Shown: positions 16,168 through 35,868 of the stretch, piece by piece
How positions within the stretch are numbered: the first letter of the stretch is position 1
Layout of the letters: every line of letters starts with the position of its first letter
Assembly (NCBI GenBank): GCA_028865585.1
Contig: JAGWJU010000002.1
Location: forward strand, 1-36,085
Length of the DNA: 36,085 nt
Source: Elusimicrobiota bacterium
Lineage (GTDB): Bacteria; Elusimicrobiota; Elusimicrobia; UBA1565; UBA9628
Direction of reading: 5' to 3'
The notes under the pieces: generated by a model
The model's database searches: none
Told to the model about the DNA's origin: nothing
Seen by the model: the letters and a program-made list of their open reading frames with translations, nothing else
Made by a program: the position numbers and the translations under genes

Positions 16168-16194
16168 TGTAACATTCTAACAGTTTGCCCTACT
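16168..16194 (+). promoter_or_regulatory. ECF-type promoter motif, copy C (TGTAAC-N16-CTACT), upstream of the porin-led operon
   Basis: TGTAACattctaacagtttgccCTACTtatt. Same architecture as the copies at 27749, 28771 and 35868 (minus strand). Confidence 0.55.
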
Positions 16195-16231
16195 TATTTC
16201 CGATGGGGGGAATGAAACGGGAGGCTCGCCG

Positions 16232-17326
16232 GTGAAAAGATTTAAGTTCTTGCTGTTCGCCGCGTGCTTGGCGCCGGTTGCGGCGCCGTCTTTGTGGGCC
16301 GACTCTCCGGGGGATGCGCCGACGACCAGGTACGTGACGACTTCCCGCGGCTCCCTGGGCCTCTCCGGCTCGGTCTATCTTTATGACTACGCCCCGGCCT
16401 TCTCCGGAGCGAGCAACAACTTCGACCTCTACGCCTTCATCCTGAACCTCGACGGCGCTTCAGCCGACGGCAAAACCGGGCTGCACGCCCAATTCCGCTA
16501 CCGCGACACGAGACTGCGCTCCTATTATCTCTCCAACGTTTGGTTCCAGGAGCTCTATGCCTACCGCAAAACGCCCTGGGGAGACGCGCACGTCGGCAAA
16601 TTTTACAGAAAGGTGGGGATACTCTGGGATGACTCGTTCTTCGGAAACATCCAATATTTCAACGGCCTGAAGCTCGCTCCCAATTACGGCGCGGAGTGGG
16701 TGGGGAACAAGCCTTTGGCTGAAGATTTCAGCGTCGATTATTCCGCGCAATTCTTCCCGAATAACAGCAACACCGACGGATCCCTCCCCGGCCGGGACGT
16801 CGACAGCGATCCTCTGGCCAAAATGCGCAATACCGCGACACTGCGCGTAGTCCCAACCTGGACCTGGGGAAAATCCAATTCCATGGCTTTAGGCTTTTCC
16901 GCGCTGAACGCGAGCCTGGACCGCTCTACCTCGACTGCGGGAAATTTCAACATCAACCAGCTCGCGGCCGACGCGACTTTGACTTGGGGGCCGTCCGTGA
17001 CCTATACCGAGATCCTGCGCCAGAACGGGGAGTTGGACACCACGCAAAACACACTGGGACGTCCCGCCTACGATACGGCGGTCTATCTTCTAGCCGGCAC
17101 GCGCTGGCAGATTAATTCCAGGGTAAACCTTCGCTTTAATTACAGCTCGGCCAATTACGTGGGGCAAAATGCCAGGGAAGAGGAATATGTCCCCGGCGCA
17201 GTGGTAAGCCTGACGCAAAACCTCTCCCTAATCGCAGAGTTCGACTACTGGAGGATCCTCTCCCGGACCGGCGGACAGAGCCTGCTTGATCGCAGCTATA
17301 ATACGGTGCTGCGATACGATTTCTAA
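16232..17326 (+). CDS. Outer-membrane beta-barrel, porin-like
   Basis: GTG start 7 nt after GGGAGG. Signal 'FLLFAACLAPVAAPSLWA'. Beta-strand periodicity. C-terminal 'VLRYDF'. Confidence 0.6.
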   Translation: MKRFKFLLFAACLAPVAAPSLWADSPGDAPTTRYVTTSRGSLGLSGSVYLYDYAPAFSGASNNFDLYAFILNLDGASADGKTGLHAQFRYRDTRLRSYYLSNVWFQELYAYRKTPWGDAHVGKFYRKVGILWDDSFFGNIQYFNGLKLAPNYGAEWVGNKPLAEDFSVDYSAQFFPNNSNTDGSLPGRDVDSDPLAKMRNTATLRVVPTWTWGKSNSMALGFSALNASLDRSTSTAGNFNINQLAADATLTWGPSVTYTEILRQNGELDTTQNTLGRPAYDTAVYLLAGTRWQINSRVNLRFNYSSANYVGQNAREEEYVPGAVVSLTQNLSLIAEFDYWRILSRTGGQSLLDRSYNTVLRYDF

Positions 17327-17337
17327 AGGAGGACGAA

Positions 17338-18714
17338 ATGACCCCAAATTCCACCGCAGCGAATAAGACGCCTTCCATCGGCGAGCGCTTGGATCGCTTG
17401 CAATGGCGGCCGTTCCACACGCGGGTCAGTCTGGCTTTAGGAATCGCCTGGCTCTTGGATTCCTTCGAGGTCAATATCATCGGCAACGTGCTAGGCCTGC
17501 TGAAGAAGCTTTGGGCCATCAGCAGCTTTGAGAGCTCGCTTTTGGTCAGCGTCTGGCTGGTAGGTATCATGGTCGGAGCTCTATTTTTCGGTTATCTTGC
17601 CGATCGCTACGGCCGCCGCAAGCTCTTTCTCCTGACCCTGGCGCTCTATTCGGCCTTTACCTTGGCCTCCGCCGCGGCCCCGGGTTATGTCTGGTTCCTC
17701 GTTTTTCGCTTCCTGACCGCCATCGGGGTGGGCGCCGAATATTCAGCCATCAACTCAGCCATCAGCGAACTCATCCCTGCCCGTTTTCGGGGCCGCGCCA
17801 ACGCGACGGTCATGAATTTCTGGCCGGTGGGGGGAATCGCGGCCGCGCTCATCACGAGCTTTCTCATCAATCTCTTGCCGCCGTCCATCGGCTGGCGTTT
17901 GGCCTTCGGTTTCGGCGCCATCATCGCGCTCTTCACGCTTTGGGCCCGCCGAGCGCTTCCCGAATCGCCGCGATGGCTTTCCAAGCGCGGGCTCGATGTC
18001 CAGGCCCGCGGTGCGCTGGCGCAAATAGAGGATGGGGAACGGCGATTCTCCGGTTCGGACCGTGCTCCCGATCGTGCGCCGGGGTTTTGGGAGCAGTTGA
18101 CGGAACTAGTGCGCCGTTGTCCAGGCCGTCTCGCATTGGGTTGCGCGCTCGACTTCTCGGAGGCCTCGGGCTACTACGGCATCTTTGCTTTCCTGCCGTT
18201 AGTCGTTCTTCCGAAACTGGGCATCGCCGAGGGGCGCGTACCATGGTTCTTCATCGTGGGCAATGTGGGAGCGGCTGCAGGTGGGCTTTTAGCCGCCTGG
18301 GCGCTTGATCGCGCCGGCCGCAAAATCACGGTGACGGGCTTCTATCTCTTGGCCGCCGGCGCGATGCTGATTATGGGTGCGGCCTCGCAAACCGGAAACG
18401 TTACGGGCGTGACTTGGGCCTTCATCGCGGCGAACTTCTGCGCCACGGGCAGTTGGATTTCGGCTTATCCCACGTTCTCGGAGATCTTTCCGACCCACCT
18501 ACGCTCGACCGGCATCGGCTTTTCGGTCGCCTTCGGCCGCATCGGAGCGGCCGCAGCGCCTCCGCTTTTGGTCTACCTCGCCGGACGCTGGAGCCCGATG
18601 GCGGCTTTCGCCCTCCTAGCATCTTTCTGGCTCATCGGCGCCGCAGCCATGGTTCCCTGGTGCGTCAAGGGTCCCGAGGCGCGCGGATTGGCATTGGAGG
18701 CGCTGGAGGCATAA
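17338..18714 (+). CDS. MFS transporter (metabolite:H+ symporter-like)
   Basis: AAGGAGGA SD. 'GYLADRYGRRKLFLL' is the MFS loop 2-3 motif. About 12 TMs. Confidence 0.88.
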   Translation: MTPNSTAANKTPSIGERLDRLQWRPFHTRVSLALGIAWLLDSFEVNIIGNVLGLLKKLWAISSFESSLLVSVWLVGIMVGALFFGYLADRYGRRKLFLLTLALYSAFTLASAAAPGYVWFLVFRFLTAIGVGAEYSAINSAISELIPARFRGRANATVMNFWPVGGIAAALITSFLINLLPPSIGWRLAFGFGAIIALFTLWARRALPESPRWLSKRGLDVQARGALAQIEDGERRFSGSDRAPDRAPGFWEQLTELVRRCPGRLALGCALDFSEASGYYGIFAFLPLVVLPKLGIAEGRVPWFFIVGNVGAAAGGLLAAWALDRAGRKITVTGFYLLAAGAMLIMGAASQTGNVTGVTWAFIAANFCATGSWISAYPTFSEIFPTHLRSTGIGFSVAFGRIGAAAAPPLLVYLAGRWSPMAAFALLASFWLIGAAAMVPWCVKGPEARGLALEALEA

Positions 18715-19607
18715 TGGAAGCAGCGGCAAAACCCGTCAATACGGAACAGCGCTATCCTTTTTCGCCCCTGTTCGCTCTCGACACGCTCTGGCTTCAGGTG
18801 GCGGGGACCCTCTGCAACCTGCGCTGCACTCATTGCTTCATCTCCTGCTCTCCGGCCAATCACAGCCATGAAATGATGTCCCTCGAAGATGTGAGGCGCT
18901 ATCTGGACGAGGCACGGCAGATGGGAGTTAAAGAGTATTACTTTACCGGTGGAGAGCCCTTCATGAACAAGGATCTCTTCGCCATGATTGAACTGGCTCT
19001 CAAGCAAGGCCCCGTCTCCATCCTGACCAATGGCCTGCTGATCACCTCTAAAACCGCCGCGCGGCTTAAAAGCCTTTCGGACGCCTCGGACTACAGCCTG
19101 GAGCTGCGCGTTTCCTTGGACGGCTATGACGCCGCGACTCATGACGCGGTCCGGGGCCTCGGCACATTCGGAAAGACGCTCAAGGGCGTCTTAAACCTGG
19201 CCGAGGCGGGCCTCAATCCCGTCATCACCGCGGTCGAGGTGAAGGATGACTTGGGCGCCCGGCAAGGCCGCGAAAAATTCCTGGCCTTCTTAAAATCCAT
19301 CGGACTCACAAAGCCCCGGCTTAAAATACTGCCCATTCTGCGATTGGGAGCCGAAATTCACCGGACGCGCGCCTATGAGGCCTGGGAAAACCTGCGCGGA
19401 CGCGAACTGACGAAAGAAGACGGCTTGGCTCTGCAGTGCTCCTCCTGCCGCATGGCGACGTCCAAAGGCGTCTACGTCTGCCCCTTGCTCATCGATTCGC
19501 CGGACGCGCGCATGGGGGCGACATTGCGGGACTCCCTGCGGCCTTTTGAACTTAAGCATCAGGCGTGCTATACCTGCCACGCCACGGGGTTTTCATGCCG
19601 GACTTAA
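18714..19607 (+). CDS. Radical SAM protein with Cys-rich C-terminal domain (ArsS / TIGR04167-like 'rSAM/selenodomain' family, all-Cys form)
   Basis: The ATG overlaps the MFS stop (TAATG). 'CNLRCTHC' is CxxxCxxC. 'YYFTGGEPF' is present. C-terminal 'CSSC...C...ACYTCHATGFSC' is Cys-rich. The track ORF from 18414 is an upstream extension inside the MFS gene. Confidence 0.85.
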   Translation: MEAAAKPVNTEQRYPFSPLFALDTLWLQVAGTLCNLRCTHCFISCSPANHSHEMMSLEDVRRYLDEARQMGVKEYYFTGGEPFMNKDLFAMIELALKQGPVSILTNGLLITSKTAARLKSLSDASDYSLELRVSLDGYDAATHDAVRGLGTFGKTLKGVLNLAEAGLNPVITAVEVKDDLGARQGREKFLAFLKSIGLTKPRLKILPILRLGAEIHRTRAYEAWENLRGRELTKEDGLALQCSSCRMATSKGVYVCPLLIDSPDARMGATLRDSLRPFELKHQACYTCHATGFSCRT

Positions 19608-20413
19608 ACGGCCGGACCATAGAGGCGGGAGCCTTCAAGAGCGTCGCCTTCATCGGCGGCATCTATTCTAATTATCTCGCCCTGGGAAAAGCGCTCGAGT
19701 TGCTTAAAGGACGGGCGGATACCGTTGTGGCATTGGGCGATTTCGGCGCGTTCGGGCCGCATCCTGACCGAACGCTTGAAATTCTGCGGGAAAGGGAAAT
19801 AGCGGCCATCCGGGGGAACTACGAGGAGGCCTTGGCCGAGGGCGCGGACGACTGCCGCTGCGGCTACACCGATCCGCGCGACAATGAGTTCGCCCGGATC
19901 TCCTACGATTACACAAAAGCGAACACCTCGCGGGAGCACGTGCAATGGATGGGCTCCTTGCCCGCGCATATCCGCTTAAGCATAGCCGGGAAGCGGATTC
20001 TGCTCTGCCACGGCTCGCCGCGCCGCGTCAACGAGTTTCTCTGGGAAAGCGCCACGCCCGAGCCCTTCATCAAAAAAATGCTGGACGACCACGAGGCCGA
20101 CATCGTGGTCTGCACCCACACGGGGCTCCACTGGGCCCGCTTCATAGAGCCGGGCCGAGGCGTGGTCAACGTCGGAGCTCTCGGGCGTCCCGCCAACGAC
20201 GGCGCTCCTCGCGTCTGGACGGCCGTCATCGAGGAGAAGGACGGCGCGCCGGCAGTCCGTTTTTTGCCCGTGGAGTACGATTTCGAGCGGCTGGCGCGCG
20301 AGATGGAGTCGGAAAAGCTGCCGCCCGAGTTCGCCCAAACCATCCGCACCGGCTGGTGGACGACCTGCCTGGAAACGCTGCCCGCCAAGGAGCGGGCCGC
20401 GGGGAAGTTCTAG
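19595..20413 (+). CDS. Metallophosphoesterase (calcineurin-like)
   Basis: 'VALGDFGAFGP', 'IRGNYEE', 'LLCHGSP' and 'VVCTHTG' motifs. Overlaps the rSAM 3' end by 13 nt. Confidence 0.8.
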   Translation: MPDLNGRTIEAGAFKSVAFIGGIYSNYLALGKALELLKGRADTVVALGDFGAFGPHPDRTLEILREREIAAIRGNYEEALAEGADDCRCGYTDPRDNEFARISYDYTKANTSREHVQWMGSLPAHIRLSIAGKRILLCHGSPRRVNEFLWESATPEPFIKKMLDDHEADIVVCTHTGLHWARFIEPGRGVVNVGALGRPANDGAPRVWTAVIEEKDGAPAVRFLPVEYDFERLAREMESEKLPPEFAQTIRTGWWTTCLETLPAKERAAGKF

Positions 20414-20420
20414 CGGCGAG

Positions 20421-21104
20421 ATGAAGATATCAATCATCATTCCCGTTCTAAACGAGAGCGGGACAATCGCCGCCGCGCTCAAGCGCCTCAAAGAGCCCGG
20501 CGAGGCGGAGCCCCCGGAGATTATTGTTTCCGACGGAGGAAGCGCCGACGGCACGCCGGAAGCGGCTCAAAATCTGGCGGACAACGTGATACGGGCCGGC
20601 AGACCCGGCCGCGCGCGGCAGATGCATGAAGGCGCCTTGGCCGCCGCGGGGGAACTTCTGCTCTTCCTTCACGCCGACACCCGCCTGCCGGAAAATTGGA
20701 GGGAAGTTCTGGAGGAAGCTTGGCGCGGACGTCCGCGGCCGGCCGCTGCGGCGTTTCGCCTGCGCTTCGACAGCGATTCATGGTTCTATCGCATTATCGC
20801 CCGAGCTGCCGCTTGGCGCAGCCGGATGACCGGGGTTCCGCTGGGAGATCAGGCTATCGCCGTTTTGCGCGAAGATTACTTCCAGGTCGGAGGATTCCCC
20901 CCGGTGCCGCTGATGGAGGAATACTTTCTCATCGCCAAGCTCAGACGTCTTGGCCCGGTGCTCATCCTGCCCGAGGCCGCCGTCACCTCGGCCAGGCGCT
21001 ACGAAAAAAAAGGCCGCGTTTTCCAGGTTTTAAGGAACGCCTTCATCACCGCCCTATTCTACGCGGGGGTCCCGCCGCGAGTGCTGGCGAAAATTTACCG
21101 ATGA
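20421..21104 (+). CDS. GT2-like transferase ('rSAM/selenodomain-associated transferase 2', TIGR04283-like)
   Basis: 'ISIIIPVLNESGTI...IIVSDGGSADGT...GRARQMHEGA...LLFLHADTRLP' matches my memory of this family. Confidence 0.8.
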   Translation: MKISIIIPVLNESGTIAAALKRLKEPGEAEPPEIIVSDGGSADGTPEAAQNLADNVIRAGRPGRARQMHEGALAAAGELLLFLHADTRLPENWREVLEEAWRGRPRPAAAAFRLRFDSDSWFYRIIARAAAWRSRMTGVPLGDQAIAVLREDYFQVGGFPPVPLMEEYFLIAKLRRLGPVLILPEAAVTSARRYEKKGRVFQVLRNAFITALFYAGVPPRVLAKIYR

Positions 21105-21793
21105 CCCAGCGGCAGGACGCCGTCGTGGTTTTCGCCAAAGCGCCGGTCCCCGGCCGCGTCAAAACAAGACTGTGCCCGCCGCTGTCTTTCGGACAGGCCG
21201 CGCAATTATACCGGGCCTTCATCCTGGACACCCTGGCGTGCGCGCGGAGCATTGCCGGGGTCAAGCTCCTGGTGGCCTACGCCGATGACGGAGCCTCGCC
21301 GGAGCTGAACTGGCTTAAAAATCAGCCCGGCTTTGATTTTTTTCCGCAGGAAGGCGGGGATTTAGGCGAGCGGCTCGTCCGCGCGTTCGACAGTGTTTTT
21401 CAAGGCGGAGCCGGGAAAGCCGTGATCATCGGCTCCGACGCGCCGCAGATCCGCCCCGAGACGATAAGACGCGCGCTGGATTCGCTCTCCGAAAGCGACG
21501 CCGTGCTTGGGCCCGCCGAAGACGGCGGCTACTATCTCATCGGGCTTAAGGAGCGCCGACCGGAGCTGTTCCAGGATGTCCCATGGTCCACGGACAAGGC
21601 CTTCGAGGAGACCCTCACCCGCGCGCGGAGTTCCGGCTTGAAAGTTTCGCTACTGGCGCCGATGGCGGACATGGACACCGTATCGGATGTTATAAACTTA
21701 GGACGCGAATTACGGGGAAAGCCGCCGGAAATTTGTCCCGCAACAGGTGAAGTCATGAATAGGCTTATTACAGGAGGGAAAGAGAGTGCTTAA
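21101..21793 (+). CDS. DUF2064 transferase ('rSAM/selenodomain-associated transferase 1', TIGR04282-like)
   Basis: ATGA overlap with the previous gene. 'VVVFAKAPVPGRVKTRLCPPL' N-terminus and 'GPAEDGGYYLIG'. The track ORF from 20696 is an upstream extension. Confidence 0.75.
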   Translation: MTQRQDAVVVFAKAPVPGRVKTRLCPPLSFGQAAQLYRAFILDTLACARSIAGVKLLVAYADDGASPELNWLKNQPGFDFFPQEGGDLGERLVRAFDSVFQGGAGKAVIIGSDAPQIRPETIRRALDSLSESDAVLGPAEDGGYYLIGLKERRPELFQDVPWSTDKAFEETLTRARSSGLKVSLLAPMADMDTVSDVINLGRELRGKPPEICPATGEVMNRLITGGKESA

Positions 21794-23144
21794 AAAAATG
21801 TCGGCCGCCTTTTTTGTCTGCGCCATCATCGGGTTCGTCGGCGGCGTTTTCTATCTGAGAAAAAAGTATGCGGCGGCGCCGATCATGATGATTCCGGTCA
21901 GAACCTACACCACGTTCCAGTACCCCGAGGACCCGGCCCGCCACAGTTCCCGCTTCGGCTTCTACGACGCGCGCCGCTTGAAGCTCGTCACCAAGGACGG
22001 CGTACATTTTAATTTTATTTTCAAACCGGAAAACGGCCGCACGGCGCGGGTCGTGTTCAAGAACGTGGACGTACGGCTTTTGAGCACGACTTTGCCGGCC
22101 TGGACGAAAAGCGACCCCGCCCTCCAGCGCATCGCCCTGACGGATCGGGAGTGGAACCGGCAGGAAGTGAGCTTTAATCCCCATGGAAGTCATTTTGAAA
22201 TCAGCGGAGGAGACGGATGGGAAAAGGAACACATCTACGCGGCGCACCTGGCCAGGAACTGCCTCAACGCCGGCTTATGGGAGGTTCTCTTGTTCGACAA
22301 GGAGAACGGCCGCAAAACCCTCTACTACCACGGCTGGTTCACCTTTCCGCTGGGCTGGTATCGGAAACTTTTTGAGCGCGAGACCGGATTGGCTTATTGG
22401 AGACACTGGTATTATCTGGAGCACTGGGATAATCCCGCGGGGCTCAAAATGGACCTCTCCAAGCTGCGGCGCATGCTGGCGCAATATCCGGTCGAAGCCT
22501 CGTTCAACCCGAATGAGCCCATCCTGCGAGAAGGCGAACAAATCGACAAGCGCAAGAACATCAGCGTCGAAACATTATCTGCCTGGGGAGACATTCTCCG
22601 CAAGAGTCCGTCCATTCGCTACGCCGCCTTTTTGCCGCCCGGCCGTTATTTCGTGAGCCATCCCTGGGGCAACGAGTACTGGCGGCTGGCGAAATTCGAG
22701 GGGGCCGTTTGGCGCCGGATTATTTCCCCGGCCGGGCCCAAACCTCTTGATGAACTAGAGCTTCAATTCAAAAGCACAAAAGGAGCGCTCAGCCGTTATA
22801 TCATCAGCGGCTTTTCCCTAAGCGCGCTGCCCCGGCTTAAGCTCGAGGACTATCCGAAAGGCCTTTACATGCCCATGGGCATCGGCGTGCCGCCGTTCCA
22901 CCAAAGCTACGAGGATCTGGAGAAAAATCCTCCGCAAAAGACTCCTTATTTCTGCCTGTGGCTCGATTCGCGGGGCCGCTGGATCAACCACCACGAGGGC
23001 GGCATCGACGGCCCCGTCTTATTGCGCGACAAGGACAATCCCGATCTGCTCCATGTCTTCCTTCTCTCCTACGAGAGGCACACCCTGATCGGACACTATG
23101 TGATTCACCTCGGGCATCATGCAAAATTGGGAGGCGCTCGATGA
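21786..23144 (+). CDS. Membrane-anchored protein of unknown function (Trp/Tyr-rich)
   Basis: GTG at 21786, 7 nt after GGAGGG, overlaps the upstream stop; ATG at 21798 is the alternative. One N-terminal TM 'AAFFVCAIIGFVGGVFYL'. 'GWFTFPLGWYRKLFE...YWRHWYYLEHWDNP'. I recognise no family. Confidence 0.6.
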   Translation: MLKKMSAAFFVCAIIGFVGGVFYLRKKYAAAPIMMIPVRTYTTFQYPEDPARHSSRFGFYDARRLKLVTKDGVHFNFIFKPENGRTARVVFKNVDVRLLSTTLPAWTKSDPALQRIALTDREWNRQEVSFNPHGSHFEISGGDGWEKEHIYAAHLARNCLNAGLWEVLLFDKENGRKTLYYHGWFTFPLGWYRKLFERETGLAYWRHWYYLEHWDNPAGLKMDLSKLRRMLAQYPVEASFNPNEPILREGEQIDKRKNISVETLSAWGDILRKSPSIRYAAFLPPGRYFVSHPWGNEYWRLAKFEGAVWRRIISPAGPKPLDELELQFKSTKGALSRYIISGFSLSALPRLKLEDYPKGLYMPMGIGVPPFHQSYEDLEKNPPQKTPYFCLWLDSRGRWINHHEGGIDGPVLLRDKDNPDLLHVFLLSYERHTLIGHYVIHLGHHAKLGGAR

Positions 23145-27574: not shown

Positions 27575-27590
27575 AGGACAGGAGCGCAAG

Positions 27591-27775: not shown

Positions 27776-27793
27776 TAATAATGGAAGGATCGC

Positions 27794-28159
27794 ATGAGAA
27801 CGCTGGTAAAACCTAAAGTCCGCAGAAAGATCGCGCTTGACGGGGAGCAGGACGGGCCGGCGCAGGCGGCCACGGCCTCGGCGGCGACATTGTTGGATTA
27901 TCCCCAGGAAGGAGAAATCATCACGTCTTCCTGCTACACGTTCCGCATCGCCCCGCGCGTAGCGGCTCTAGGCGTGGATATTTCCATCGACCAGGGGCCG
28001 TGGATGCCCTGCCGGGAATCGGTCGGCTACTGGTGGTATGATTGGTCGGGCTATGCGGCGGGCCGGCACCAAGCATCGGTCAGGACGCGGACTGCGGACG
28101 GGCGGCTTGTTCCAAGCGATATCCGCCAATTTGAAACGCGCTCTGAACCCACGGCTTGA
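27794..28159 (+). CDS. Hypothetical protein, probably beta-sandwich
   Basis: GGAAGGA SD. 'YTFRIAPRVAALGVDISIDQGPWMPCRESVGYWWYDWSGYAAGRHQASVRTRTADGR' looks like an Ig/E-set-type module. No signal peptide. Confidence 0.55.
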   Translation: MRTLVKPKVRRKIALDGEQDGPAQAATASAATLLDYPQEGEIITSSCYTFRIAPRVAALGVDISIDQGPWMPCRESVGYWWYDWSGYAAGRHQASVRTRTADGRLVPSDIRQFETRSEPTA

Positions 28160-28195
28160 TTTTAGGAACGAATAAATGAAACAGGGGGCAACATC

Positions 28196-28770: not shown

Positions 28771-28797
28771 TGTAACATTTGCGGCACTAGCCGGACT
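28771..28797 (+). promoter_or_regulatory. ECF-type promoter motif, copy B (TGTAAC-N16-GGACT), upstream of the bufferin-type operon
   Basis: TGTAACatttgcggcactagccGGACTaattatt. A leader of roughly 50 nt containing a CTGGG-accgaa-CCCAG hairpin precedes the precursor ATG. Confidence 0.55.
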
Positions 28798-28854
28798 AAT
28801 TATTATCGGCTGGGACCGAACCCAGACCGAATCGGAAACAAACAGGAGAGATGA

Positions 28855-29163
28855 ATGAGCAAGACGATGAACAAAGCCCTCTTGGGGGCGGCTATGGCCG
28901 GAATCATGGGGGCGGCTATGATGGCGGCTCCCGCTTCGGCTAAACAAAGAAAAGCGGCGAAGAACGTCAAGTGCTACGGCGTGAACAAATGCGCCGGGCA
29001 CGGCAGCTGCGGCGGCAAGGGTCACCAGTGCGCGGGCAAGAATTCCTGCAAGGGCCAAGGCTGGCTCCCCATGCCCAAGAAATCCTGCGAGAACATCGAG
29101 GGCGGTTCATTGACGCCTGTCAAACCGGCGACCCAGCCGATGAACAGCAAGGGTGGCCAGTAA
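28855..29163 (+). CDS. bufA: DUF2282 / BufA-type bufferin precursor peptide with Sec signal (6 Cys, 2 His in core)
   Basis: GGAG lies 6 nt before the ATG. Signal 'ALLGAAMAGIMGAAMMAAPASA'. Core 'KCYGVNKCAGHGSCGGKGHQCAGKNSCKGQGWLPMPKKSCENIEGGSLTP' follows the 'KCYGV...C...CAG...W..P...C...GGSL' DUF2282 pattern. Confidence 0.85.
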   Translation: MSKTMNKALLGAAMAGIMGAAMMAAPASAKQRKAAKNVKCYGVNKCAGHGSCGGKGHQCAGKNSCKGQGWLPMPKKSCENIEGGSLTPVKPATQPMNSKGGQ

Positions 29164-29189
29164 GGCTTAAGCAAATAGGAACGAATCGT

Positions 29190-30083
29190 GTGGCGGCCTG
29201 GAAAACCTCCCATCATCAGCCGGACGGCTTAGTCGTCCGCGGCGTCGGCATCGGCCTACGTTCCGTCCATTACGATCACATCCTCTCCCGCCGTCCCGCG
29301 GTCCCTTGGTTCGAGGCTATTTCCGAGAACTATATGGGACTGCGGGACGGCCAAGGGGGAAGGCCCTTGGAAATTTTGCGGCTTGTCCGAGAGCGTTATC
29401 CCGTGGCCCTTCACGGAGTTTCCATGAATATCGGCTCCGCAGACCCCCTGGACCGGGATTATTTGAAAAAACTCAAGCGCCTGGCCGACCTCGTCAAACC
29501 CGCGCACATCTCGGATCATCTATGCTGGACGGGGACGCGAGGGCGCAATCTGCACGATCTCCTGCCTCTGCCTTATACGCGGGAAGCCTTGAATCTCATC
29601 GTGCCCCGGGTTCGGGAAATCCAGGAGACGCTGGGCAGGCGCTTTCTTCTGGAAAACGTTTCCAGTTACGCCGCGTACCGGCATTCCGAGATGCCGGAAT
29701 GGGAGTTCTTGGCCGAAATCGCGGAGCGCTCGGGCTGCGGCATTCTCTTGGACGTCAACAACGTCCACGTCAGCGCGACGAACCACGGATACGACCCACT
29801 CGAATACATCGATGGCGTTCCGTCCGGGCTGGTAGTGCAGATGCACCTGGCCGGCTATTCCGAGTCCGGCGCTCTCCTCATCGACACGCACGATCACCCG
29901 GTGTCCGATCCGGTCTGGGACTTGTACGCCCGAGCCCTGCGCCGTTTTGGGGACGTTCCCACGCTCATCGAATGGGACGATCGGATTCCCTCTTTTCGCG
30001 TCCTTGAGGAACAGGCCGCGCGCGCCGAAAAAATCCGCCGGGGGGTGTCGCGTGAGCGCCTTGCGCCCGCCCTGTCTTCCTGA
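29190..30083 (+). CDS. bufB: DUF692 multinuclear non-heme iron oxidase (MNIO; BufB/MbnB-like)
   Basis: GTG at 29190 is the only plausible start after the precursor stop. 'GVGIGLRSVHYDHIL...WFEAISENYM...ALHGVSMNIGS...ISDHLCW...LLENVSSY...LLDVNNVHVSA...MHLAG...LIDTHDHPV...TLIEWD'. Confidence 0.9.
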   Translation: MAAWKTSHHQPDGLVVRGVGIGLRSVHYDHILSRRPAVPWFEAISENYMGLRDGQGGRPLEILRLVRERYPVALHGVSMNIGSADPLDRDYLKKLKRLADLVKPAHISDHLCWTGTRGRNLHDLLPLPYTREALNLIVPRVREIQETLGRRFLLENVSSYAAYRHSEMPEWEFLAEIAERSGCGILLDVNNVHVSATNHGYDPLEYIDGVPSGLVVQMHLAGYSESGALLIDTHDHPVSDPVWDLYARALRRFGDVPTLIEWDDRIPSFRVLEEQAARAEKIRRGVSRERLAPALSS

Positions 30084-30888
30084 ACTGCAAAGCTGGCTCC
30101 AGGACGTCCTGAGCGATCCGGACGGGGTGGACGCGGCCGCAGCCCGCGGCGCGGCGAACGCCCAAGTCCTGTCGTGGATTCTAGACGGAGCCGGCGCGGA
30201 CGTGCGAACCCGGCTTTCGGTCTATTCCGACGCCTACTTCCTGCGCCTGCTCGATTCTCTCGGCCACGATTTTCCGGCGCTCAAACGAGCCTTGGGCGGC
30301 GACGGCTTCCGAGGCTTGATCGCGGACTATCTCAAGACAAACCCCTCCACGTTTAAGAGCGTTTCCATGGTCGGCGGGAGTCTTTTCACTTTCATTCGAT
30401 GGCATCCCTTAAGCCGAAAATTCGGGTTCCTGCCGGATTTGGCGCGTTTGGAATGGGCCGTGCTCACTTGTCTCCATCGGGATCGCCCTGAGACGGCCGA
30501 TCTTTTCCGATCCGGGGCGCTGTCGGAAGCGGATCTGCCGTCCGCCCAATTATCGCTGGGCCCGGCGGCACGGCTTTTGGAAACGGACTGGGCCGTGGAC
30601 CGGCTCTGGCGCCGCGCGGAGCTTCCCTCGGGCCGCGGCCCGAGGCGTTTGCGAAAAAAAGAGCCTCGCAAGCTGCTGATATTTCGGGATGAGTTATGGG
30701 TCCGCGTGGAATCCTTAGATCCGGCGCAATGGTCGGCTCTAAAGAAGATTGAGCGGGGGGCTGCGCTCGAATCGGTCTGCCGGCATTGGGAAAATTCCTC
30801 CGGCTTTCGGGTCGCTCCCGCGGCCGCGCGAAAATGGTTTAAGAATTGGATTCAATCCGGAATCATCGCCATCAGGAGGCCCTCATGA
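30052..30888 (+). CDS. bufC: DUF2063 protein (BufC-type MNIO partner)
   Basis: GTG at 30052, overlapping bufB by 32 nt. 'VYSDAYFLRLLDSLGHDFPALKRALGGDGFRGLIADYLKTNPS' matches the DUF2063 N-terminal domain pattern. Confidence 0.8.
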   Translation: MSALRPPCLPELQSWLQDVLSDPDGVDAAAARGAANAQVLSWILDGAGADVRTRLSVYSDAYFLRLLDSLGHDFPALKRALGGDGFRGLIADYLKTNPSTFKSVSMVGGSLFTFIRWHPLSRKFGFLPDLARLEWAVLTCLHRDRPETADLFRSGALSEADLPSAQLSLGPAARLLETDWAVDRLWRRAELPSGRGPRRLRKKEPRKLLIFRDELWVRVESLDPAQWSALKKIERGAALESVCRHWENSSGFRVAPAAARKWFKNWIQSGIIAIRRPS

Positions 30889-32402
30889 ACGAAACCATCC
30901 GTGTTTTGCCGGATGACGAGCATAACCGCGCCTTGGCGTCAAACGCTCATCCGCAGGGTTGGATCAATCCCAATCCTGCCGCGAAATACCATTTGGTCGT
31001 TGTCGGCGGAGGCACGGCCGGCCTGGTCACGGCGGCGGGCGCCGCCGGCCTGGGCGCCAAGGTCGCGTTGGTGGAGAAGCACCTCCTGGGCGGGGACTGT
31101 TTGAACGTCGGCTGCGTGCCGTCGAAGGCTCTCATCCGAGCGTCCCGGGCCGCAGCGGATGTCCGGGGCGCGGCTGAGTTTGGAATTTCGGTCCCGCTGG
31201 GCTGGACGGCGGATTTTCCCGGGATCATGGAGCGGCTGCGCCGTTTGCGCGCGCAGTTAAGTTCAAACGATTCGGCCAAGCGCTTTAAGGACTTGGGCGT
31301 GGACATTTTCCTGGGCGAAGGCCGGTTCGTGGGCCCGTCATCCCTGGAAGTCGCGGGCTCACGGCTCAATTTCTCCAAGGCCGTCATCGCCACGGGCGCG
31401 CGCGCGGCCAGGCTGCCCATCCCAGGACTATGGGAATCGGGCGCCCTGACCAACGAAACCGTCTTCTCGCTGACCGAACTGCCCAAGCGCCTCGTCGTCA
31501 TCGGCGCGGGGCCCATCGGCTGCGAACTCTCGCAGGCTTTCGCCCGCTTCGGCGCCCGCGTCTCCATTCTGGAAGTCTCGAGCCAAATTCTCGGGCGCGA
31601 GGACGAGGACGCGGCCCGCATCGTGCAAGCCGCGCTCAAGAAAGACGGGGTTGAAATCATGACGTCCTGCAAAATCTCCGGCGTGGAGGCGCGAGGCGGG
31701 GAGAAAATCGTGCGGTTAGAAAGCGAAGGTAGAAACATGGAACTGACCGCGGACGCGATTCTGGTCGGCGTGGGCCGCGCTCCCAACGTCGAAGGCCTGG
31801 AATTGGAGGCGGCGGGCGTGGAATACGACAAGCGGACGGGCGTCAAGGTGGACGACCGACTGCGCACGGCGAACTCCCGCATCTTCGCTGCGGGGGACGT
31901 TTGCTCGCCTTACAAATTCACCCATGCGGCCGACGCCATGGCGCGGGTCGCGATTCAGAACGCATTGTTCGCGGGCAGGAAAAAGGCGAGTTCGCTCGTC
32001 ATCCCCTGGTGCACCTACACAGATCCGGAAGTCGCCCACGTCGGACTTTACGAAAAGGAGGCGCACGCTCTCGGCATCAAGACGAATACCTTCATACAAG
32101 CCCTTAAGGATGTAGACCGAGCCGTTCTGGACGGGCAAGGAGAAGGCTTTGTTAAAATCCATCTTCGGACCGGCACCGATGAAATCCTTGGCGCGACCAT
32201 CGTGGCCGCCCATGCCGGCGAGATGATTGGAGAACTAGCCCTGGCCATGACCGCTAAAATCGGGCTCAAAACAATAGGGGCGACTATCCATCCATATCCC
32301 ACTCAAGCCGAGGCCGTTAAGAAAACGGCGGACGCCTACAACCGAAGCCGCTTGACGCCTGCGGCCAAGCGACTCTTGGCGTTTTGGCTGGGGCGGCCGT
32401 AG
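30885..32402 (+). CDS. Class-I pyridine-nucleotide-disulfide oxidoreductase (MerA/Lpd-like flavoprotein lacking the MerA C-terminal Cys pair)
   Basis: AGGAGG lies 5 nt before the ATG. ATGA overlap with the bufC stop. 'VVVGGGTAGL', 'GGDCLNVGCVPSK', 'HPYPTQAEA'. The C-terminus 'TPAAKRLLAFWLGRP' has no CC. Confidence 0.9.
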   Translation: MNETIRVLPDDEHNRALASNAHPQGWINPNPAAKYHLVVVGGGTAGLVTAAGAAGLGAKVALVEKHLLGGDCLNVGCVPSKALIRASRAAADVRGAAEFGISVPLGWTADFPGIMERLRRLRAQLSSNDSAKRFKDLGVDIFLGEGRFVGPSSLEVAGSRLNFSKAVIATGARAARLPIPGLWESGALTNETVFSLTELPKRLVVIGAGPIGCELSQAFARFGARVSILEVSSQILGREDEDAARIVQAALKKDGVEIMTSCKISGVEARGGEKIVRLESEGRNMELTADAILVGVGRAPNVEGLELEAAGVEYDKRTGVKVDDRLRTANSRIFAAGDVCSPYKFTHAADAMARVAIQNALFAGRKKASSLVIPWCTYTDPEVAHVGLYEKEAHALGIKTNTFIQALKDVDRAVLDGQGEGFVKIHLRTGTDEILGATIVAAHAGEMIGELALAMTAKIGLKTIGATIHPYPTQAEAVKKTADAYNRSRLTPAAKRLLAFWLGRP

Positions 32403-32411
32403 GCGCGCAAT

Positions 32412-32939
32412 ATGCCAAATCCCGTCACCCGCCTTTTCTGGAAGGCCGCCATTCGTCTGCGCTGGCTTCTGCCCTCGAAGAAAGCCTCCGGAGTCGAGAT
32501 AGGACGGCGTATTCCGGATTTTGCTTTATCCAATGCGGAAGGACGCAGCTTCAGACTCTCTTCAGTTTTCCCTGATAAGGCCGCGGTGCTGTGGCTGACC
32601 AATCTCTGCTCAAGCTGCCAGGAGCGCATTCCGCTTCTAGAGCGGGTCTATTCGGAGAAACGCAAAAACTTGGAGATATTCGCCATTTCGACGCTAGGGG
32701 ACGATCGGCGGACGCCCGAAATAATCGCAGCGGAGCATCACCCGAGCTTCCCGCTGCTTTTGGACCCCAAAGACTGGGTGAAGAATACATTGGGATTGGA
32801 GCACCCATCAGGAGCCTGCCCTATGTATAACCTCCTAATGCTGGATCGCTCCGGACGCGTTCGCTTGCGCCACCACCTTTCGGCCATCCCGGACGAGCGG
32901 TTTTTGAAAGAGTTGGATTCCCTACTGGAGGCCGCATGA
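32412..32939 (+). CDS. Thioredoxin-fold redoxin (TlpA/AhpC-TSA-like) with CSSC active site
   Basis: 'IPDFALSNAEGRSFRLSSV...AVLWLTNLCSSCQERIPLLE'. Lies 9 nt after the reductase stop. Confidence 0.75.
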   Translation: MPNPVTRLFWKAAIRLRWLLPSKKASGVEIGRRIPDFALSNAEGRSFRLSSVFPDKAAVLWLTNLCSSCQERIPLLERVYSEKRKNLEIFAISTLGDDRRTPEIIAAEHHPSFPLLLDPKDWVKNTLGLEHPSGACPMYNLLMLDRSGRVRLRHHLSAIPDERFLKELDSLLEAA

Positions 32940-33571
32940 CAGGTCCTGATTTAAGCGCCTCCATGGAGAAATACCGTAAGCACGCCCCAGGTTATGATGA
33001 TAGCGCCCGTCGAACCGAAGGCTTGCGCCGCAGGACCATCCAAGCCCTTGATCTACGTGGGGGAGAAACAGTCGTTGATGTCGGATGCGGAACGGGCCTG
33101 AGCTTCGCTGGCCTGCAGAACCGCATCGGGCCTAAAGGAACTCTCATCGGCATCGAGCCCTGCGCAGAGATGATAGCCCGGGCACGCGAACGGGTGGAGA
33201 CATACGGATGGAAGAACGTGGTTCTGCTCGAGTCTTCGGCCGAGCGGGCGGTCTGGGACGCTCCGGCTGACGCCTATCTCTTTAATTTTGCCCATGACGT
33301 CTTGCGCTCTCATATCTCGCTCAAAAATCTCTTTAAGCATGCCGTCATCGATGCCCGCGTCGTGGCTTCTGGAATGAAGCTCATGCCGTGGTACCTGGCG
33401 CCGGTAAACCCCATCGTAAGGCGCAAAGCTCGACCTTATCTGACCACGTTCGACGGTTTTTCTCGGCCCTGGACGGTTCTGGAAAACTATGCCCTAAACT
33501 TGAACGTGCGGATATACGTCTTCGGGTTGTTTTATCTGGCACATGGCACTTTGTCATTAGGAAGTGGATGA
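32936..33571 (+). CDS. Class I SAM-dependent methyltransferase
   Basis: ATGA overlap with the previous gene. Motif I 'VVDVGCGTGLS'. Paralogous along its full length to 34847-35509. Confidence 0.8.
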   Translation: MTGPDLSASMEKYRKHAPGYDDSARRTEGLRRRTIQALDLRGGETVVDVGCGTGLSFAGLQNRIGPKGTLIGIEPCAEMIARARERVETYGWKNVVLLESSAERAVWDAPADAYLFNFAHDVLRSHISLKNLFKHAVIDARVVASGMKLMPWYLAPVNPIVRRKARPYLTTFDGFSRPWTVLENYALNLNVRIYVFGLFYLAHGTLSLGSG

Positions 33572-34884
33572 TGAAAAAGCGGATTTTGCTTCTGGCCCCC
33601 AGCGCATGGGACTTGGCGGGAATCAATAAACCCGAATTCCAGGCAAAATACGAATTCATCCAAGTTCCGATGGCGTTCTATCAAACCCATCCACTTCTAA
33701 TCGGGATCCGGTTCGACATCCTGCGTTTCATCGCCAGAGCCGTACGCCTAGGCCGCAAACTGAATGTCGATGGAATAGTCGGCACGCACGATTATCCGGC
33801 ATCCTTAGCCGCAGCGGCCGTGGCCGCAGAGTTGGGGCTTCCGGGGCCAGCCGTGAACAAAGCCCTGCTTTGCCAGCACAAATATCTTTGTCGTCTCAAG
33901 CAACGAGACATAATCCCCGAAGCCACTCCTGCCTTCAGTCTGATTGATCCCTTCGACTTTACGCAGCGCCTGCCGCTCAAATTTCCTATCTTCGTCAAAC
34001 CGGTCAAAGCAACCCTGTCCATGTTCGCCGGAGAAGCCGGCAATGAACGCGAACTCGCGGACCTCCTGAAACTTTCTCAACTGGAGCGGCTCGGAGGACT
34101 TATTGCTCTTCGGCCGTTTAACCGCATGCTCACGGCTTACACTGATTTTAAAACGCACGCGAATTATTTTATCGCAGAGGAAGTCCTGCGTGGCGCCCAA
34201 GTCACCGTCGAAGGCTTCGCGTACCGCGGCCGCCCGGAAATCATGGGCATCGTCGATTCGATTATGTATCCGGGCACGCGCAGCTTTGAGCGTTTTGAAT
34301 ATCCGTCCCGCTTGCCGCCCCAGGTTCAGGAGCGTATGGGAAACTTGGCTCTTCGCTTCATATCCTCCATCGGATTCAATGACGGGTGCTTCAATGTGGA
34401 AATGATTTACGACGCCCAGGAAAACTCCATCCACATCATCGAGGTCAACCCACGGCTATGTTCGCAATTCAGCGATCTTTACGAAAAGGTCAACGGCACG
34501 AGCGGCTATGCCGTGCAGTTGGCCATTGCCGCGGGCGAACGGCCGTCGTTTTCCAGAAGGGCCGGGAAATACCGTGCGGCGGCGAGCTTCGTCTTGAGAA
34601 CATTCGAGGACAAGAAGGTCCTGCGCCTGCCGGCTCAGCCGGCAATAACCGCCATCACGGAAAGGTTCCCGGGCACGCTGGTTATGCCGCTTTGCCGCAA
34701 GAACGCGTGGCTTTCCTCAGAACCTCAGGACCGGGAAAGTTTTCGCTACGCCGCCATTAATATGGGCGCAGGCGGCTTTGACGAGCTACACGCTTCTTTC
34801 CACGCCGCGCACGCGGCCCTGCCCTTTGAATTCACCGGCAGGACCTTCAGGACGGATTACCGTTTGTCCGAGAGCCTGACGTAA
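33568..34884 (+). CDS. ATP-grasp family ligase
   Basis: ATGA overlap with the previous gene; starts 'MMKKRILLLAPS'. 'FPIFVKPVKATLSMFA', 'YFIAEEVLRGAQVTVEGF', 'CFNVEMIYD...IHIIEVNPRL'. The track ORF from 33388 is an upstream extension. Confidence 0.8.
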   Translation: MMKKRILLLAPSAWDLAGINKPEFQAKYEFIQVPMAFYQTHPLLIGIRFDILRFIARAVRLGRKLNVDGIVGTHDYPASLAAAAVAAELGLPGPAVNKALLCQHKYLCRLKQRDIIPEATPAFSLIDPFDFTQRLPLKFPIFVKPVKATLSMFAGEAGNERELADLLKLSQLERLGGLIALRPFNRMLTAYTDFKTHANYFIAEEVLRGAQVTVEGFAYRGRPEIMGIVDSIMYPGTRSFERFEYPSRLPPQVQERMGNLALRFISSIGFNDGCFNVEMIYDAQENSIHIIEVNPRLCSQFSDLYEKVNGTSGYAVQLAIAAGERPSFSRRAGKYRAAASFVLRTFEDKKVLRLPAQPAITAITERFPGTLVMPLCRKNAWLSSEPQDRESFRYAAINMGAGGFDELHASFHAAHAALPFEFTGRTFRTDYRLSESLT

Positions 34885-35509
34885 TCGAATTCCGCCGATA
34901 AACGCCTCTGGCGATATAGCTGGCGCCCAACCAAATCTGGCGCACGTTCAAGTCCGGGATATAATCGGACTGCAGGAGGCTCCAAGGGCGATTGAGGCTT
35001 TCAGTCGTCGTCATATAGTTTCTGTTGACGACGCGGACGTAAATATTAAGGGGAGAAAGCCACCAGGGGAAAAGCTTGGTTCCTGCCAAAGCGACGCGAG
35101 CAGAATTCTTGGCCGAGGCAAAAATATTGGACAACGCCTTGGGAGAGCGCAGTACGTCCTGGGTATAGTGGAACAACGCCGCGTCCCAGGAAGGGATGAC
35201 TGCGGATTCCATCGAGGATTCAATAAGGGTGACGTTTTTCCAGCCCGCGCTTTCGACACGTTTTCGGGCCAGCGACAGCATATCAGGACTCAATTCCACG
35301 CCGACAATGCTCCCCCGAGACCCAATCTTTTCTTCCAAGAGGGAAAAACACGCGCCCGTGCCGCAGGCGACATCAAGAACTGTATCGCCAGGACGCAAAT
35401 CCAGGGCAGCGACCGCCCTCTCGCGGACCGAAGCCGCACGACGAGTGGCGCGATCGTAGTTCGAAGCCAATTCGTGGTAACGAGCGACAGCAAGAGAAGG
35501 ATCAGGCAT
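34847..35509 (-). CDS. Class I SAM-dependent methyltransferase (paralogue of 32936-33571)
   Basis: Start is ATG at 35509 or 35518, overlapping the upstream gene end. 'VLDVACGTGACF'. Collinear with the paralogue ('ALDLR.G.TV.DV.CGTG', 'GWKNV.L.ESS', 'DVLRS', 'RPW..L', 'LNVR'). The 3' end overlaps the ATP-grasp 3' end by 38 nt. Confidence 0.8.
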   Translation of the reverse strand: MPDPSLAVARYHELASNYDRATRRAASVRERAVAALDLRPGDTVLDVACGTGACFSLLEEKIGSRGSIVGVELSPDMLSLARKRVESAGWKNVTLIESSMESAVIPSWDAALFHYTQDVLRSPKALSNIFASAKNSARVALAGTKLFPWWLSPLNIYVRVVNRNYMTTTESLNRPWSLLQSDYIPDLNVRQIWLGASYIARGVYRRNSITSGSRTNGNPS

Positions 35510-35822
35510 CTTCGTCATTCTTAATGATTCTACCATTCGCCCTAAGTACCGCCATAATTTGGGGGATGCTGGGTGCTCCACCAAATCTGCAGGCTGTCGC
35601 GCCACGCACAGTTGCCGCTCCCGTGTTTATTTCTCGACCGTTTATCAAAATGGTAGGAGATGGGAAGCCGCGCCACGCACGAGGAGTTTTTTTCGATTGC
35701 ACATCGATTTCCTTCCAGATTGGCGCGAGGCCCGCATGCGATAAGGCCATTCTCAGATTTTTGCGAGCCTGCTCCACGTTTGGGCAGCCTTCAAAATAAA
35801 GAAGATAAATCTTCATCTTCAT
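35502..35822 (-). CDS. Small thioredoxin/glutaredoxin-fold protein (single N-terminal 'GCP' Cys plus a distal Cys)
   Basis: 'KIYLLYFEGCPNVEQARKNL...FPSPTILINGREI...ACRF'. GAAGG SD. The exact family was not recognised. Confidence 0.5.
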   Translation of the reverse strand: MKMKIYLLYFEGCPNVEQARKNLRMALSHAGLAPIWKEIDVQSKKTPRAWRGFPSPTILINGREINTGAATVRGATACRFGGAPSIPQIMAVLRANGRIIKNDEDA

Positions 35823-35841
35823 CTCGAACCTTCATCTAATA

Positions 35842-35868
35842 AGTGCAATTTTGAGGTCATTTGTTACA
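35842..35868 (-). promoter_or_regulatory. ECF-type promoter motif, copy D (TGTAAC-N16-GCACT)
   Basis: Minus strand reads TGTAACaaatgacctcaaaattGCACTtattag, ending 20 nt before the ATG at 35822. Confidence 0.5.

Follow-up and report, generated by a model that had tools for sequence, protein, structure and literature searches.

A stretch of 36,085 nucleotides from an uncultivated Elusimicrobiota bacterium (assembly GCA_028865585.1, contig JAGWJU010000002.1, positions 1 to 36,085, forward strand), referred to here as the window, encodes a sigma factor of the extracytoplasmic function (ECF) type, followed directly by a small putative anti-sigma factor, and contains five exact copies of the bipartite element TGTAAC-N18-ACTNA. 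Four copies are intergenic, and the fifth lies within the sigma gene itself; the coordinates are collected in Table 1. The sigma factor consists of regions 2 and 4 only, which is a hallmark of the ECF type, and scores above the cutoff of NCBIfam model TIGR02937. The best specific NCBIfam model, TIGR02943, gave 117 bits, below its cutoff of 162, and a search of the PDB returned distant ECF sigma factors only, the nearest being CnrH (E=3e-11). The start of the anti-sigma gene overlaps the end of the sigma gene, translation beginning either in the ATGA at 15576-15573 or at a TTG at 15591. Its product matches the anti-sigma factor family NF052368 (E=5e-13) with 48.7 bits, slightly below the cutoff of 50 bits; this was its sole NCBIfam match, and no match to Pfam or to DUF1109 was found.

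Table 1. Positions of the sigma and anti-sigma genes, the predicted promoters, and the genes downstream of them in the window
Feature	Position	Strand	Description
ECF sigma gene	15573..16163	-	196 aa; Pfam Sigma70_r2 (residues 26-93) and Sigma70_r4_2 (residues 133-184)
ZAS-type anti-sigma gene	15331..15591	-	81-86 aa, putative small cytoplasmic protein; C-x25-H-x3-C-x2-C
Intragenic promoter (predicted)	15649..15677	-	TGTAAC-N18-ACTAA in the sigma gene, region 4.2 helix-turn-helix codons I-C-N-V-L-G-V-S-Y-T-N-L
Extended -10 (putative)	16174..16182	-	TGTTAGAAT; housekeeping-type, 10 nt ahead of the sigma ATG
Promoter C (predicted)	16168..16196	+	TGTAAC (16168-16173), 18 nt, ACTTA (16192-16196); exact match
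Promoter A (predicted)	27749..27777	+	TGTAAC-N18-ACTTA; 16 nt ahead of the ATG of the gene for a 121-aa hypothetical protein
Promoter B (predicted)	28771..28799	+	TGTAAC-N18-ACTAA; 55 nt ahead of the ATG of the DUF2282 bufferin precursor gene
Promoter D (predicted)	35840..35868	-	TGTAAC-N18-ACTTA; 17 nt ahead of the ATG of the DUF2703/DF-family thioredoxin-like gene
Promoter C operon	16232..24648	+	Porin-like outer membrane protein, MFS transporter, radical SAM protein, metallophosphoesterase, two glycosyltransferases, 452-aa hypothetical protein, DUF547, VTT/DedA
Promoter A unit	27794..28714	+	121-aa hypothetical protein, AhpD/CMD-family protein
Promoter B operon	28855..34884	+	DUF2282, MNIO (MbnB/TglH/ChrH), DUF2063, MerA-like pyridine-nucleotide disulfide oxidoreductase, AhpC/TSA, methyltransferase, ATP-grasp
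Promoter D unit	34847..35822	-	DUF2703/DF-family (seleno)protein-like thioredoxin fold, SAM methyltransferase

A bipartite element tied to one family of sigma factors

The form TGTAAC-N16-NNACT occurs five times without mismatch in the window, compared with 0.02 matches expected from 100 dinucleotide shuffles of the same 36 kb, none of which contained more than one. A preliminary description of this DNA had listed four copies, at 16168 (+), 27749 (+), 28771 (+), and 35868..35842 (-). All four are exact and read as quoted there, but the copy at 15677..15651 (-), inside the sigma gene, had been overlooked. The extended form TGTAAC-N18-ACTNA is likewise exact at all five sites. The same description had the copies followed by TWAWT, which is imprecise, the invariant part being an A two bases past ACT that is present at 37/37 distinct sites of the window and the related loci described below, in a search that did not demand it. 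The layout had also been likened to that of ECF promoters, and the AAC in the -35 block agrees with this; the conserved -10 block, however, is ACTNA and not CGAC/CGTC, CGAC being found at site A only. The two bases ahead of ACTNA vary in the window (CT, CG, GG, GC, and AC). Among all collected sites there is a purine at position 7 and a T-rich stretch at positions 8-11, and spacer and flanks are otherwise not conserved. All four intergenic sites of the window are oriented with the next gene and end 16-55 nt ahead of its start codon; site C begins 5 nt from the start codon of the sigma gene on the opposite strand and lies 35 nt ahead of the GTG of the porin-like gene. A scan for sigma70-type promoters over positions 14500-16500 and 27100-29000, which hold sites C, A, and B and the intragenic site, predicted none.

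When one mismatch to TGTAAC-N18-ACTNA was permitted, the window gave 9 matches against 0.35 expected, and with two mismatches it gave 14 against 6.0. The additional matches (11481-, 19885-, 34117+, 35893-, and others) lie inside or antisense to genes and were taken as chance or degenerate occurrences. A degenerate copy, TGTAAC-N18-ATTAA at 35893-35921 (-), shares its strand with site D and lies 53 nt further upstream, in AT-rich intergenic DNA; it may be a relic or act as a weak promoter in tandem with D.

Relatives of the sigma gene were collected by scanning one genome per species, which gave 80 loci (numbered L001 onward), and the genes at these loci were assigned by homology to curated window proteins and by first-open-reading-frame-downstream rules. 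Identity of the sigma factors to that of the window is 90-58% in Elusimicrobiota metagenome-assembled genomes, ~40-45% in Bdellovibrionota/Bacteriovoracia, and ~35% in Omnitrophota, Burkholderiales, and others. In the closer loci, the exact motif occurs at two fixed spots, divergently upstream of the sigma gene and inside it, ~470 nt from its start. The first of these corresponds to promoter C and lies ahead of porin orthologues in L001 and L002; divergent sites are also present in L003/4, L007-9, L041-43, and L051. The gap between GTAAC and AC was 18 nt in 53/56 related-locus hits when 17-19 nt were permitted. Furthermore, among the 76 sigma homologues for which the 3' end is present, 69 have a neighbouring 65- to 113-aa open reading frame containing HxxxCxxC, and 66 of these frames start ≤~35 nt from the sigma stop codon; sigma and anti-sigma are presumably co-transcribed. 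Three region 4 cysteines (~C136, C163, and C187, in ..C-A/L-x-x-L.., I-C-N, and R-E-C-L-E) are conserved in all 80 homologues. They recall the redox-sensitive cysteine pair described for Mycobacterium tuberculosis SigK (PMC7826278), and the sigma protein may itself be sensitive to redox state or metals.

These data leave little room for a random repetition or for the terminus of a mobile or repetitive element. The conserved blocks are short, and nothing else speaks for such an origin, which is effectively refuted by the enrichment, by the conservation of the two blocks alone without flanks or spacer, by the presence of sites at orthologous positions beside 60-90% identical sigma genes and in another phylum, and by the covariation described next.

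The sigma homologues vary at one residue of region 4.2, which reads ..T-N-L-R-V.., ..T-N-L-G-V.., or ..N-(L/C)-W-V.., and they are referred to here as Arg, Gly, and Trp types. In the window this residue is R174, which aligns with the first Arg of the recognition helix GTVRSRIFRAR of AlgU/sigmaE, where the helix begins that inserts into the major groove of the -35 element. In 327 kb of Arg-type loci, GTAAC-N18-ACTNA was found 42 times, the GTAAT version 4 times, and the GTAAG version once, with every other GTAAx..yCTNA combination present at most twice. In 542 kb of Gly-type loci the corresponding counts were 1, 51, and 24, with at most 9 for each of the others. Hence, a change of the recognition-helix residue from Arg to Gly goes along with a switch of the sixth -35 base from C to T or G. 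Each of the two phyla has sigma factors of both types (Arg type in L034 and L041-43 of the Bdellovibrionota, Gly type in L020 of the Elusimicrobiota), and the switch therefore tracks the residue and not the taxon. This covariation ties the motif to this sigma family, beyond mere neighbourhood. In the Arg-type loci, an open reading frame of ≥80 aa starts ≤120 nt from 36/39 motif sites, compared with 51% of random positions.

Taken together, it is very probable that the ECF sigma factor encoded at 15573-16163 directs RNA polymerase to the five TGTAAC-N18-ACTNA elements, which would serve as its promoters. A local ECF regulon had been proposed from four of the sites, and this proposal has gained from the recurrence of the motif beside homologous sigma genes in Elusimicrobiota and Bdellovibrionota, with the same 18-nt gap, ahead of the same gene families, and with the covariation of the sixth base and one sigma residue. 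It could be argued that the promoters belong to another, paralogous ECF sigma factor encoded elsewhere and that the adjacency is incidental, as the visible part of the genome is limited to 36 kb, no motif lies upstream of the sigma gene itself, and bacteria often have several ECF sigma factors with overlapping -35 'AAC' motifs (PMC8103513). We regard this as improbable, given that the motif accompanies this particular sigma family across two phyla, that its sixth base changes together with a recognition-helix residue of this sigma factor, and that the copy inside the sigma gene follows the same switch. It is more improbable again that the blocks are the binding site of a regulator instead of -35 and -10 elements. 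Two MerR genes and a gene for a DUF2063 'putative DNA-binding' protein are indeed present in the window, and sites A and D are unusually near to start codons. However, the motif is asymmetric and bipartite and has no dyad symmetry, whereas the MerR operators of the window are palindromes within TTGACT...TATAAT promoters. The motif, moreover, invariably points the same way as the downstream gene, agrees with ECF promoters in its spacing and 'AAC' block, covaries with a sigma residue and with no regulator, and is also found at related loci without MerR or DUF2063 homologues.

The copy inside the sigma gene and a putative promoter of the sigma gene itself

The intragenic site lies 57 nt ahead of the TTG and 72 nt ahead of the ATG at which the anti-sigma gene may start. 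It is conserved in sigma homologues down to ~40% identity, and in loci with both the internal motif and an HxxxCxxC open reading frame, the latter starts 47-108 nt past the -10 block. In Arg-type genes, the Cys codon of the site is TGT in 20/20, whereas the same genes use 10 TGT and 32 TGC elsewhere (24% TGT). The Asn codon is AAC in 19/19, against a background of 50 AAC and 47 AAT (52%), and the Thr codon is ACT in 13/19, against 28 ACT and 126 other Thr codons (18%). Two residues later, AAT and AAC are both used freely for Asn, and the spacer codons show free synonymous variation. Gly-type genes that retain the Asn have AAT in 15/15 and those that bear Lys have AAG, in agreement with the TGTAAT/G promoters of their loci. 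In Trp-type genes, which lack the motif, the Cys codon is TGC in 8/17. Two intergenic sites of L009 happen to translate as C-N...T-N-L-R. Because the synonymous positions are fixed beyond the codon usage of the same genes, these counts indicate that the intragenic site is under selection at the DNA level, over and above selection on the protein.

The simplest reading is that the intragenic site is a sigma-dependent promoter for the anti-sigma gene, which would provide negative feedback. Alternatively, this copy might not work at all and be either a silent relic or a by-product of a protein need for Cys-Asn...Thr-Asn. The C-N and T-N/H residues are conserved across the sigma family, motif-less groups included; the overlap of the anti-sigma start with the sigma stop would allow translation from the sigma transcript without a separate promoter; and the Thr codon is ACC in 6/19 Arg-type genes. 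What makes a non-working copy unlikely in our view are the same codon data: TGT and AAC are fixed well beyond their background use, the neighbouring Asn codon is free, the third base of the retained Asn codon is T in all 15 Gly-type genes, as it is in the TGTAAT promoters of those loci, and TGC is common in the motif-less Trp-type genes. We found no close precedent for a conserved internal anti-sigma promoter in the literature searched.

In the sigma orientation, no motif with up to two mismatches was found upstream of the sigma gene in the window. Copy C had been noted to abut the sigma gene, and it does so, but it faces the divergent neighbour and thus gives no autoregulation. Instead, a TAnAAT lies 6-23 nt ahead of the sigma ATG in 14/14 loci (the window and L001-L013, of which 12 are labelled Elusimicrobia/Elusimicrobiota) and is preceded by TGn in at least 6 of these 14; it is absent in the Elusimicrobial L016. 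A scan for sigma70-type promoters gave nothing convincing for the sigma gene. The conserved TAnAAT suggests that a housekeeping extended -10 drives constitutive transcription of the sigma gene and that the leader is very short or absent. In the window, L001-4, L006, and L012, this element is located within the spacer of the divergent ECF promoter, and the two may interfere with each other. In the Gly-type Bdellovibrionota loci L017, L021, L024-L027, L029, L030, L032, and L056, a 16- to 20-nt palindrome, (a)aTGTTTAyATrTAAACAtt, lies 10-40 nt ahead of the sigma ATG and looks like a repressor operator. This palindrome is absent from the window.

In combination, these features would describe an arrangement in which the DNA encoding the helix-turn-helix of the sigma factor holds a promoter that is read by the same sigma factor and transcribes only the anti-sigma gene. 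The sigma gene itself would be expressed constitutively from a near-leaderless mRNA, the feedback would be purely negative, and the internal site would have switched synonymously along with the specificity of the sigma factor, reader and target co-evolving within ~40 bp. We consider the case for the whole of this combination to be evenly balanced.

Downstream genes and a proposed circuit

The genes previously assigned to the operons behind the four intergenic sites were confirmed by Pfam and NCBIfam matches, with the exception of the porin-like protein of operon C, for which neither database gave a family match. This protein has a signal peptide and the C-terminal sequence ...RYDF, typical of outer-membrane barrels. 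The genes of operon C abut or overlap, and its two glycosyltransferases match TIGR04283 and TIGR04282, both 'arsenosugar biosynthesis' models, above the NCBIfam cutoffs. Within this operon, the gene set from radical SAM to VTT/DedA at 18414-24648 (+) is conserved and functionally obscure, and its members often have a promoter copy of their own in relatives. In operon B, the DUF2282-MNIO-DUF2063 genes correspond to the bufferin gene set (PMC11626156).

Many of the same families are preceded by the motif at the related loci. This applies to AhpD homologues in L011, L017, L030, L032, and L035; to DUF2282 orthologues in L003/L004 (motif 61 nt upstream) and in Gly-type loci, where the TGTAAT/G versions are used; to homologues of the oxidoreductase in L051, L017, L019, and L026; and to DUF547, GT2, and VTT genes, which have their own copies. 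Other motif-preceded genes in relatives encode PHO4-type transporters, glutaredoxins with Cys-rich tails, and an MsrB-MsrA fusion. The PHO4-family genes follow the motif in many relatives, as in L003 at 8172 (-), L006 at 8641 (-), L009 at 6734 (-), L012 at 9950 (-), and L051 at 9881 (-); they are divergent from the sigma gene in 4 of these 5 loci, and their products have an inserted C-L-N-C-H-W-A-H-W. In the window, the position divergent from sigma is taken by a porin-like gene instead. In L016, CGTAAC-N18-ACTTA at 10749 (+) lies directly 3' of the anti-sigma gene and ahead of a gene for a secreted MsrB-MsrA fusion.

The start site of Neisseria sigmaE transcripts maps 6 nt past CGTCTAAH (PMC2893595), and by analogy we placed the start sites ~7 nt past ACTNA. 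The predicted leaders are then 29 nt for C, 10 nt for A, 49 nt for B, and 11 nt for D. The preliminary description had cautioned that sites A and D share the sequence down to the start codon and that part of the conserved block may not be a -10. These sites do lie only 16-17 nt ahead of the start codons, but no element besides a -10 and a leader is needed, since ATGRAAGGWTCG, common to both, can on the Neisseria analogy be read as the start site and Shine-Dalgarno sequence at the 5' end of the predicted transcript, which would explain the short leader. As several relatives have an ATG only 11-13 nt past ACTNA, short or absent leaders seem typical of this regulon.

Several points weigh against these elements being promoters of the adjacent sigma factor. 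All of the support is drawn from sequence, the scan of this genome covered 36 kb, and the compared sequences are mutually related, so that fewer independent events have occurred than the counts suggest. The CGT usual in ECF promoters is missing from the -10 block, and the leaders of ~10-11 nt at sites A and D force the ribosome-binding site to the very 5' end of the mRNA. With no motif ahead of the sigma gene itself, the usual argument from autoregulation is lost. As for the intragenic site, the A of ACTNA is also set by the Asn/His codon, and because the Thr codon is ACC in the 6/19 Arg-type genes mentioned above, some relatives may have a weak internal promoter or none.

The surroundings of the regulon are rich in metal-related genes. 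The merR promoters, at 24674-24706 (+) and 15093..15060 (-), are of another class, as had been stated before, with TTGACT, a 20-nt spacer containing a palindrome (ctatactctagtatag and ccataccatagtattgg, respectively), and TATAAT/TATACT, which is the sigma70/MerR type. One of them lies directly ahead of MerR2-MerT/HMA-MerA and the other ahead of MerR1; merR is co-directional with its mer genes and not divergent from them. A tiny open reading frame 3' of merA, at 27509-27574 (+), encodes the hydrophobic peptide MGFMGWAAFLCLAMLLSGCCC, which ends in three cysteines and might be a small membrane peptide that handles mercury or metals; another small open reading frame, with Cys-Cys, seems to follow it. 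Positions 1-14200 appear to encode large RND-type efflux-like proteins (1102, 1116, 348, and 442 aa) and an HMA-domain protein (12962-13336), which fits a metal-resistance island. A tRNA-like stretch at the end of the window proved not to be a tRNA.

We propose the following circuit. At rest, the sigma factor would be bound by the 81- to 86-aa cytoplasmic zinc-binding (ZAS) anti-sigma factor encoded directly 3' of it. Thiol-reactive stress, whether caused by oxidants, by electrophiles, or by soft metals and metalloids (Hg, Cu, or As, for example), would disrupt the Cys/His zinc site and thereby release the sigma factor, which would then initiate ~7 nt past ACTNA at the four intergenic promoters and switch on operons C, A, B, and D. 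At the fifth promoter, inside the region 4.2 codons, it would transcribe the anti-sigma gene only, resulting in negative feedback, while the sigma gene would continue to be transcribed constitutively from its housekeeping extended -10 with a very short leader and no autoregulation. The metal context, that is, the mer genes, the bufferin genes, and the HMA proteins, suggests soft metals or metalloids as candidate inducers.

An uncharacterised ECF family is thereby given a promoter motif that can be tested and a predicted regulon, in two phyla, the Elusimicrobiota and Bdellovibrionota, for which hardly any genetics exists. The analysis links one putative thiol-sensing ZAS switch to bufferin-type copper- and metal-binding peptides, DUF547, enzymes resembling AhpD and MerA, and a gene set of the arsenosugar type, a linkage that gives some indication of what several domains of unknown function may do. 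The conserved intragenic site would be a case of regulatory DNA that constrains synonymous codons inside the gene of a regulator, and the circuit as a whole would illustrate an ECF wiring with negative feedback only. In addition, the covariation of Arg/Gly with C/T(G) is a clean datum for the code between sigma region 4 and the -35 element, which is used in the design of orthogonal ECF switches.

Comparison with known ECF systems

The hallmarks of ECF sigma factors are the presence of regions 2 and 4 only, an AAC in the -35 and a CGT in the -10 element, an adjacent co-transcribed anti-sigma gene, and positive autoregulation (PMC8103513). The system of the window has the architecture, the AAC, and the adjacent anti-sigma gene, and it lacks the CGT and the positive autoregulation. 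Its nearest characterised systems are sigmaE/MseR of Neisseria and sigmaF of Caulobacter, both of which drive bufferin-type DUF2282-DUF692-DUF2063 operons (PMC2893595, PMC3511200).

Our comparison with Neisseria was made by published features, namely, the anti-sigma factor, the promoter register, and the targets. The sigmaE/MseR pair of N. meningitidis and N. gonorrhoeae (NMB2144/NMB2145) and RpoE2/HrsE of Haemophilus influenzae are assigned to 'ECF group 13' (PMC7907618). As in these species, a small cytoplasmic ZAS anti-sigma gene directly follows the sigma gene in the window. Counted from M-P-S-C (the third Met), its product has Cys4, His30, Cys34, and Cys37, which is the Cys/His register of MseR that has been shown by mutagenesis to matter (PMC2893595). 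The Neisseria promoter, GTAAGGTT-N12/13-CGTCTAA, corresponds to GTAAG-N18-TCTAA in the register used here (PMC2893595). It has the same spacing as the GTAAC-N18-ACTNA of the window and differs from it at the sixth -35 base, which is G in Neisseria and C in the window, and at the first -10 base, which is T in Neisseria and A in the window. The DUF2282-DUF692(MNIO)-DUF2063 target is shared. Neisseria sigmaE and Haemophilus RpoE2 have methionine sulfoxide reductase as their hallmark target (PMC2893595, PMC7907618), and in the relative L016 it is a predicted target as well, as MsrB-MsrA. In contrast, the Neisseria sigma gene is located at the end of a DoxX-DUF2282-DUF692-DUF2063 operon and is positively autoregulated (PMC2893595), whereas in the window 12.6 kb separate the sigma and anti-sigma genes from the bufferin operon, which is encoded on the opposite strand, and the pair has no upstream motif. 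Also unlike Neisseria, the window has the predicted internal anti-sigma promoter, and neither DoxX nor msrAB was found in it. The Trp-type homologues of Burkholderiales and Omnitrophota (~35% identity), whose anti-sigma factors are similar to that of the window, were considered as the Neisseria family; this could not be confirmed, their loci showing no MNIO operon and few motif sites.

Caulobacter sigmaF reads GTAACC-N16-CGAA (PMC3511200), and the promoters of its group, ECF16, follow (T/C)GTAAC-N16/17-CGAA (PMC8315932). SigmaF directly drives two DUF2282-DUF692-DUF2063 (bufferin) operons, and ECF16 systems respond to metal or oxidant stress (PMC3511200, PMC11626156, PMC8315932). The system of the window resembles this group, which includes sigmaF/NrsF of Caulobacter and BcrS/AbcS of Brucella, in its (T/C)GTAAC -35 and its bufferin target. 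However, the -10 of ECF16 is CGAA, with nACT at that position in the window sites; the ECF16 anti-sigma factor is a six-helix membrane protein of the DUF1109 type, in contrast to the soluble 81- to 86-aa ZAS protein without a DUF1109 match; and ECF16 sigma genes carry their own promoter, which the sigma gene of the window does not. Membership of the window sigma factor in ECF16 is ruled out by the -10 and the type of anti-sigma factor.

Streptomyces coelicolor sigmaR is controlled by RsrA, a cytoplasmic ZAS anti-sigma factor that senses thiol-redox changes through an HxxxCxxC zinc site, and its regulon is rich in thioredoxin-like and redox enzymes (cited in PMC2893595). The system of the window is similar in having a ZAS anti-sigma factor with HxxxCxxC and a predicted regulon rich in thioredoxin-like and redox enzymes. 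SigmaR-RsrA differs from it in belonging to another ECF group with another promoter, in its upstream autoregulation, and in the lack of a bufferin or metal-resistance context. For rpoE-rseABC of Escherichia coli, Rhodius et al. (2006) reportedly described a sigmaE-dependent promoter inside rpoE that transcribes rseA, which is comparable to the ECF-dependent promoter predicted inside the sigma gene of the window for its anti-sigma gene. RseA is a membrane anti-sigma factor released by proteolysis, unlike the soluble ZAS protein of the window. To our knowledge, neither conservation of the internal site across phyla nor its covariation with sigma specificity has been described for the E. coli rpoE system. 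Furthermore, E. coli rpoE is positively autoregulated from upstream promoters (PMC8103513), and the sigma gene of the window is not. Finally, the likeness to Bacillus subtilis sigmaX that had been drawn before holds for the -35 hexamer TGTAAC, which is identical, and not for the -10, which is CGWC in sigmaX (PMC12153292) and ACTNA here; the anti-sigma type and cell-envelope regulon of sigmaX are unrelated to those of the window's system. The circuit is thus of a known ECF kind in an uncharacterised branch, and its link to a bufferin operon already has precedent.

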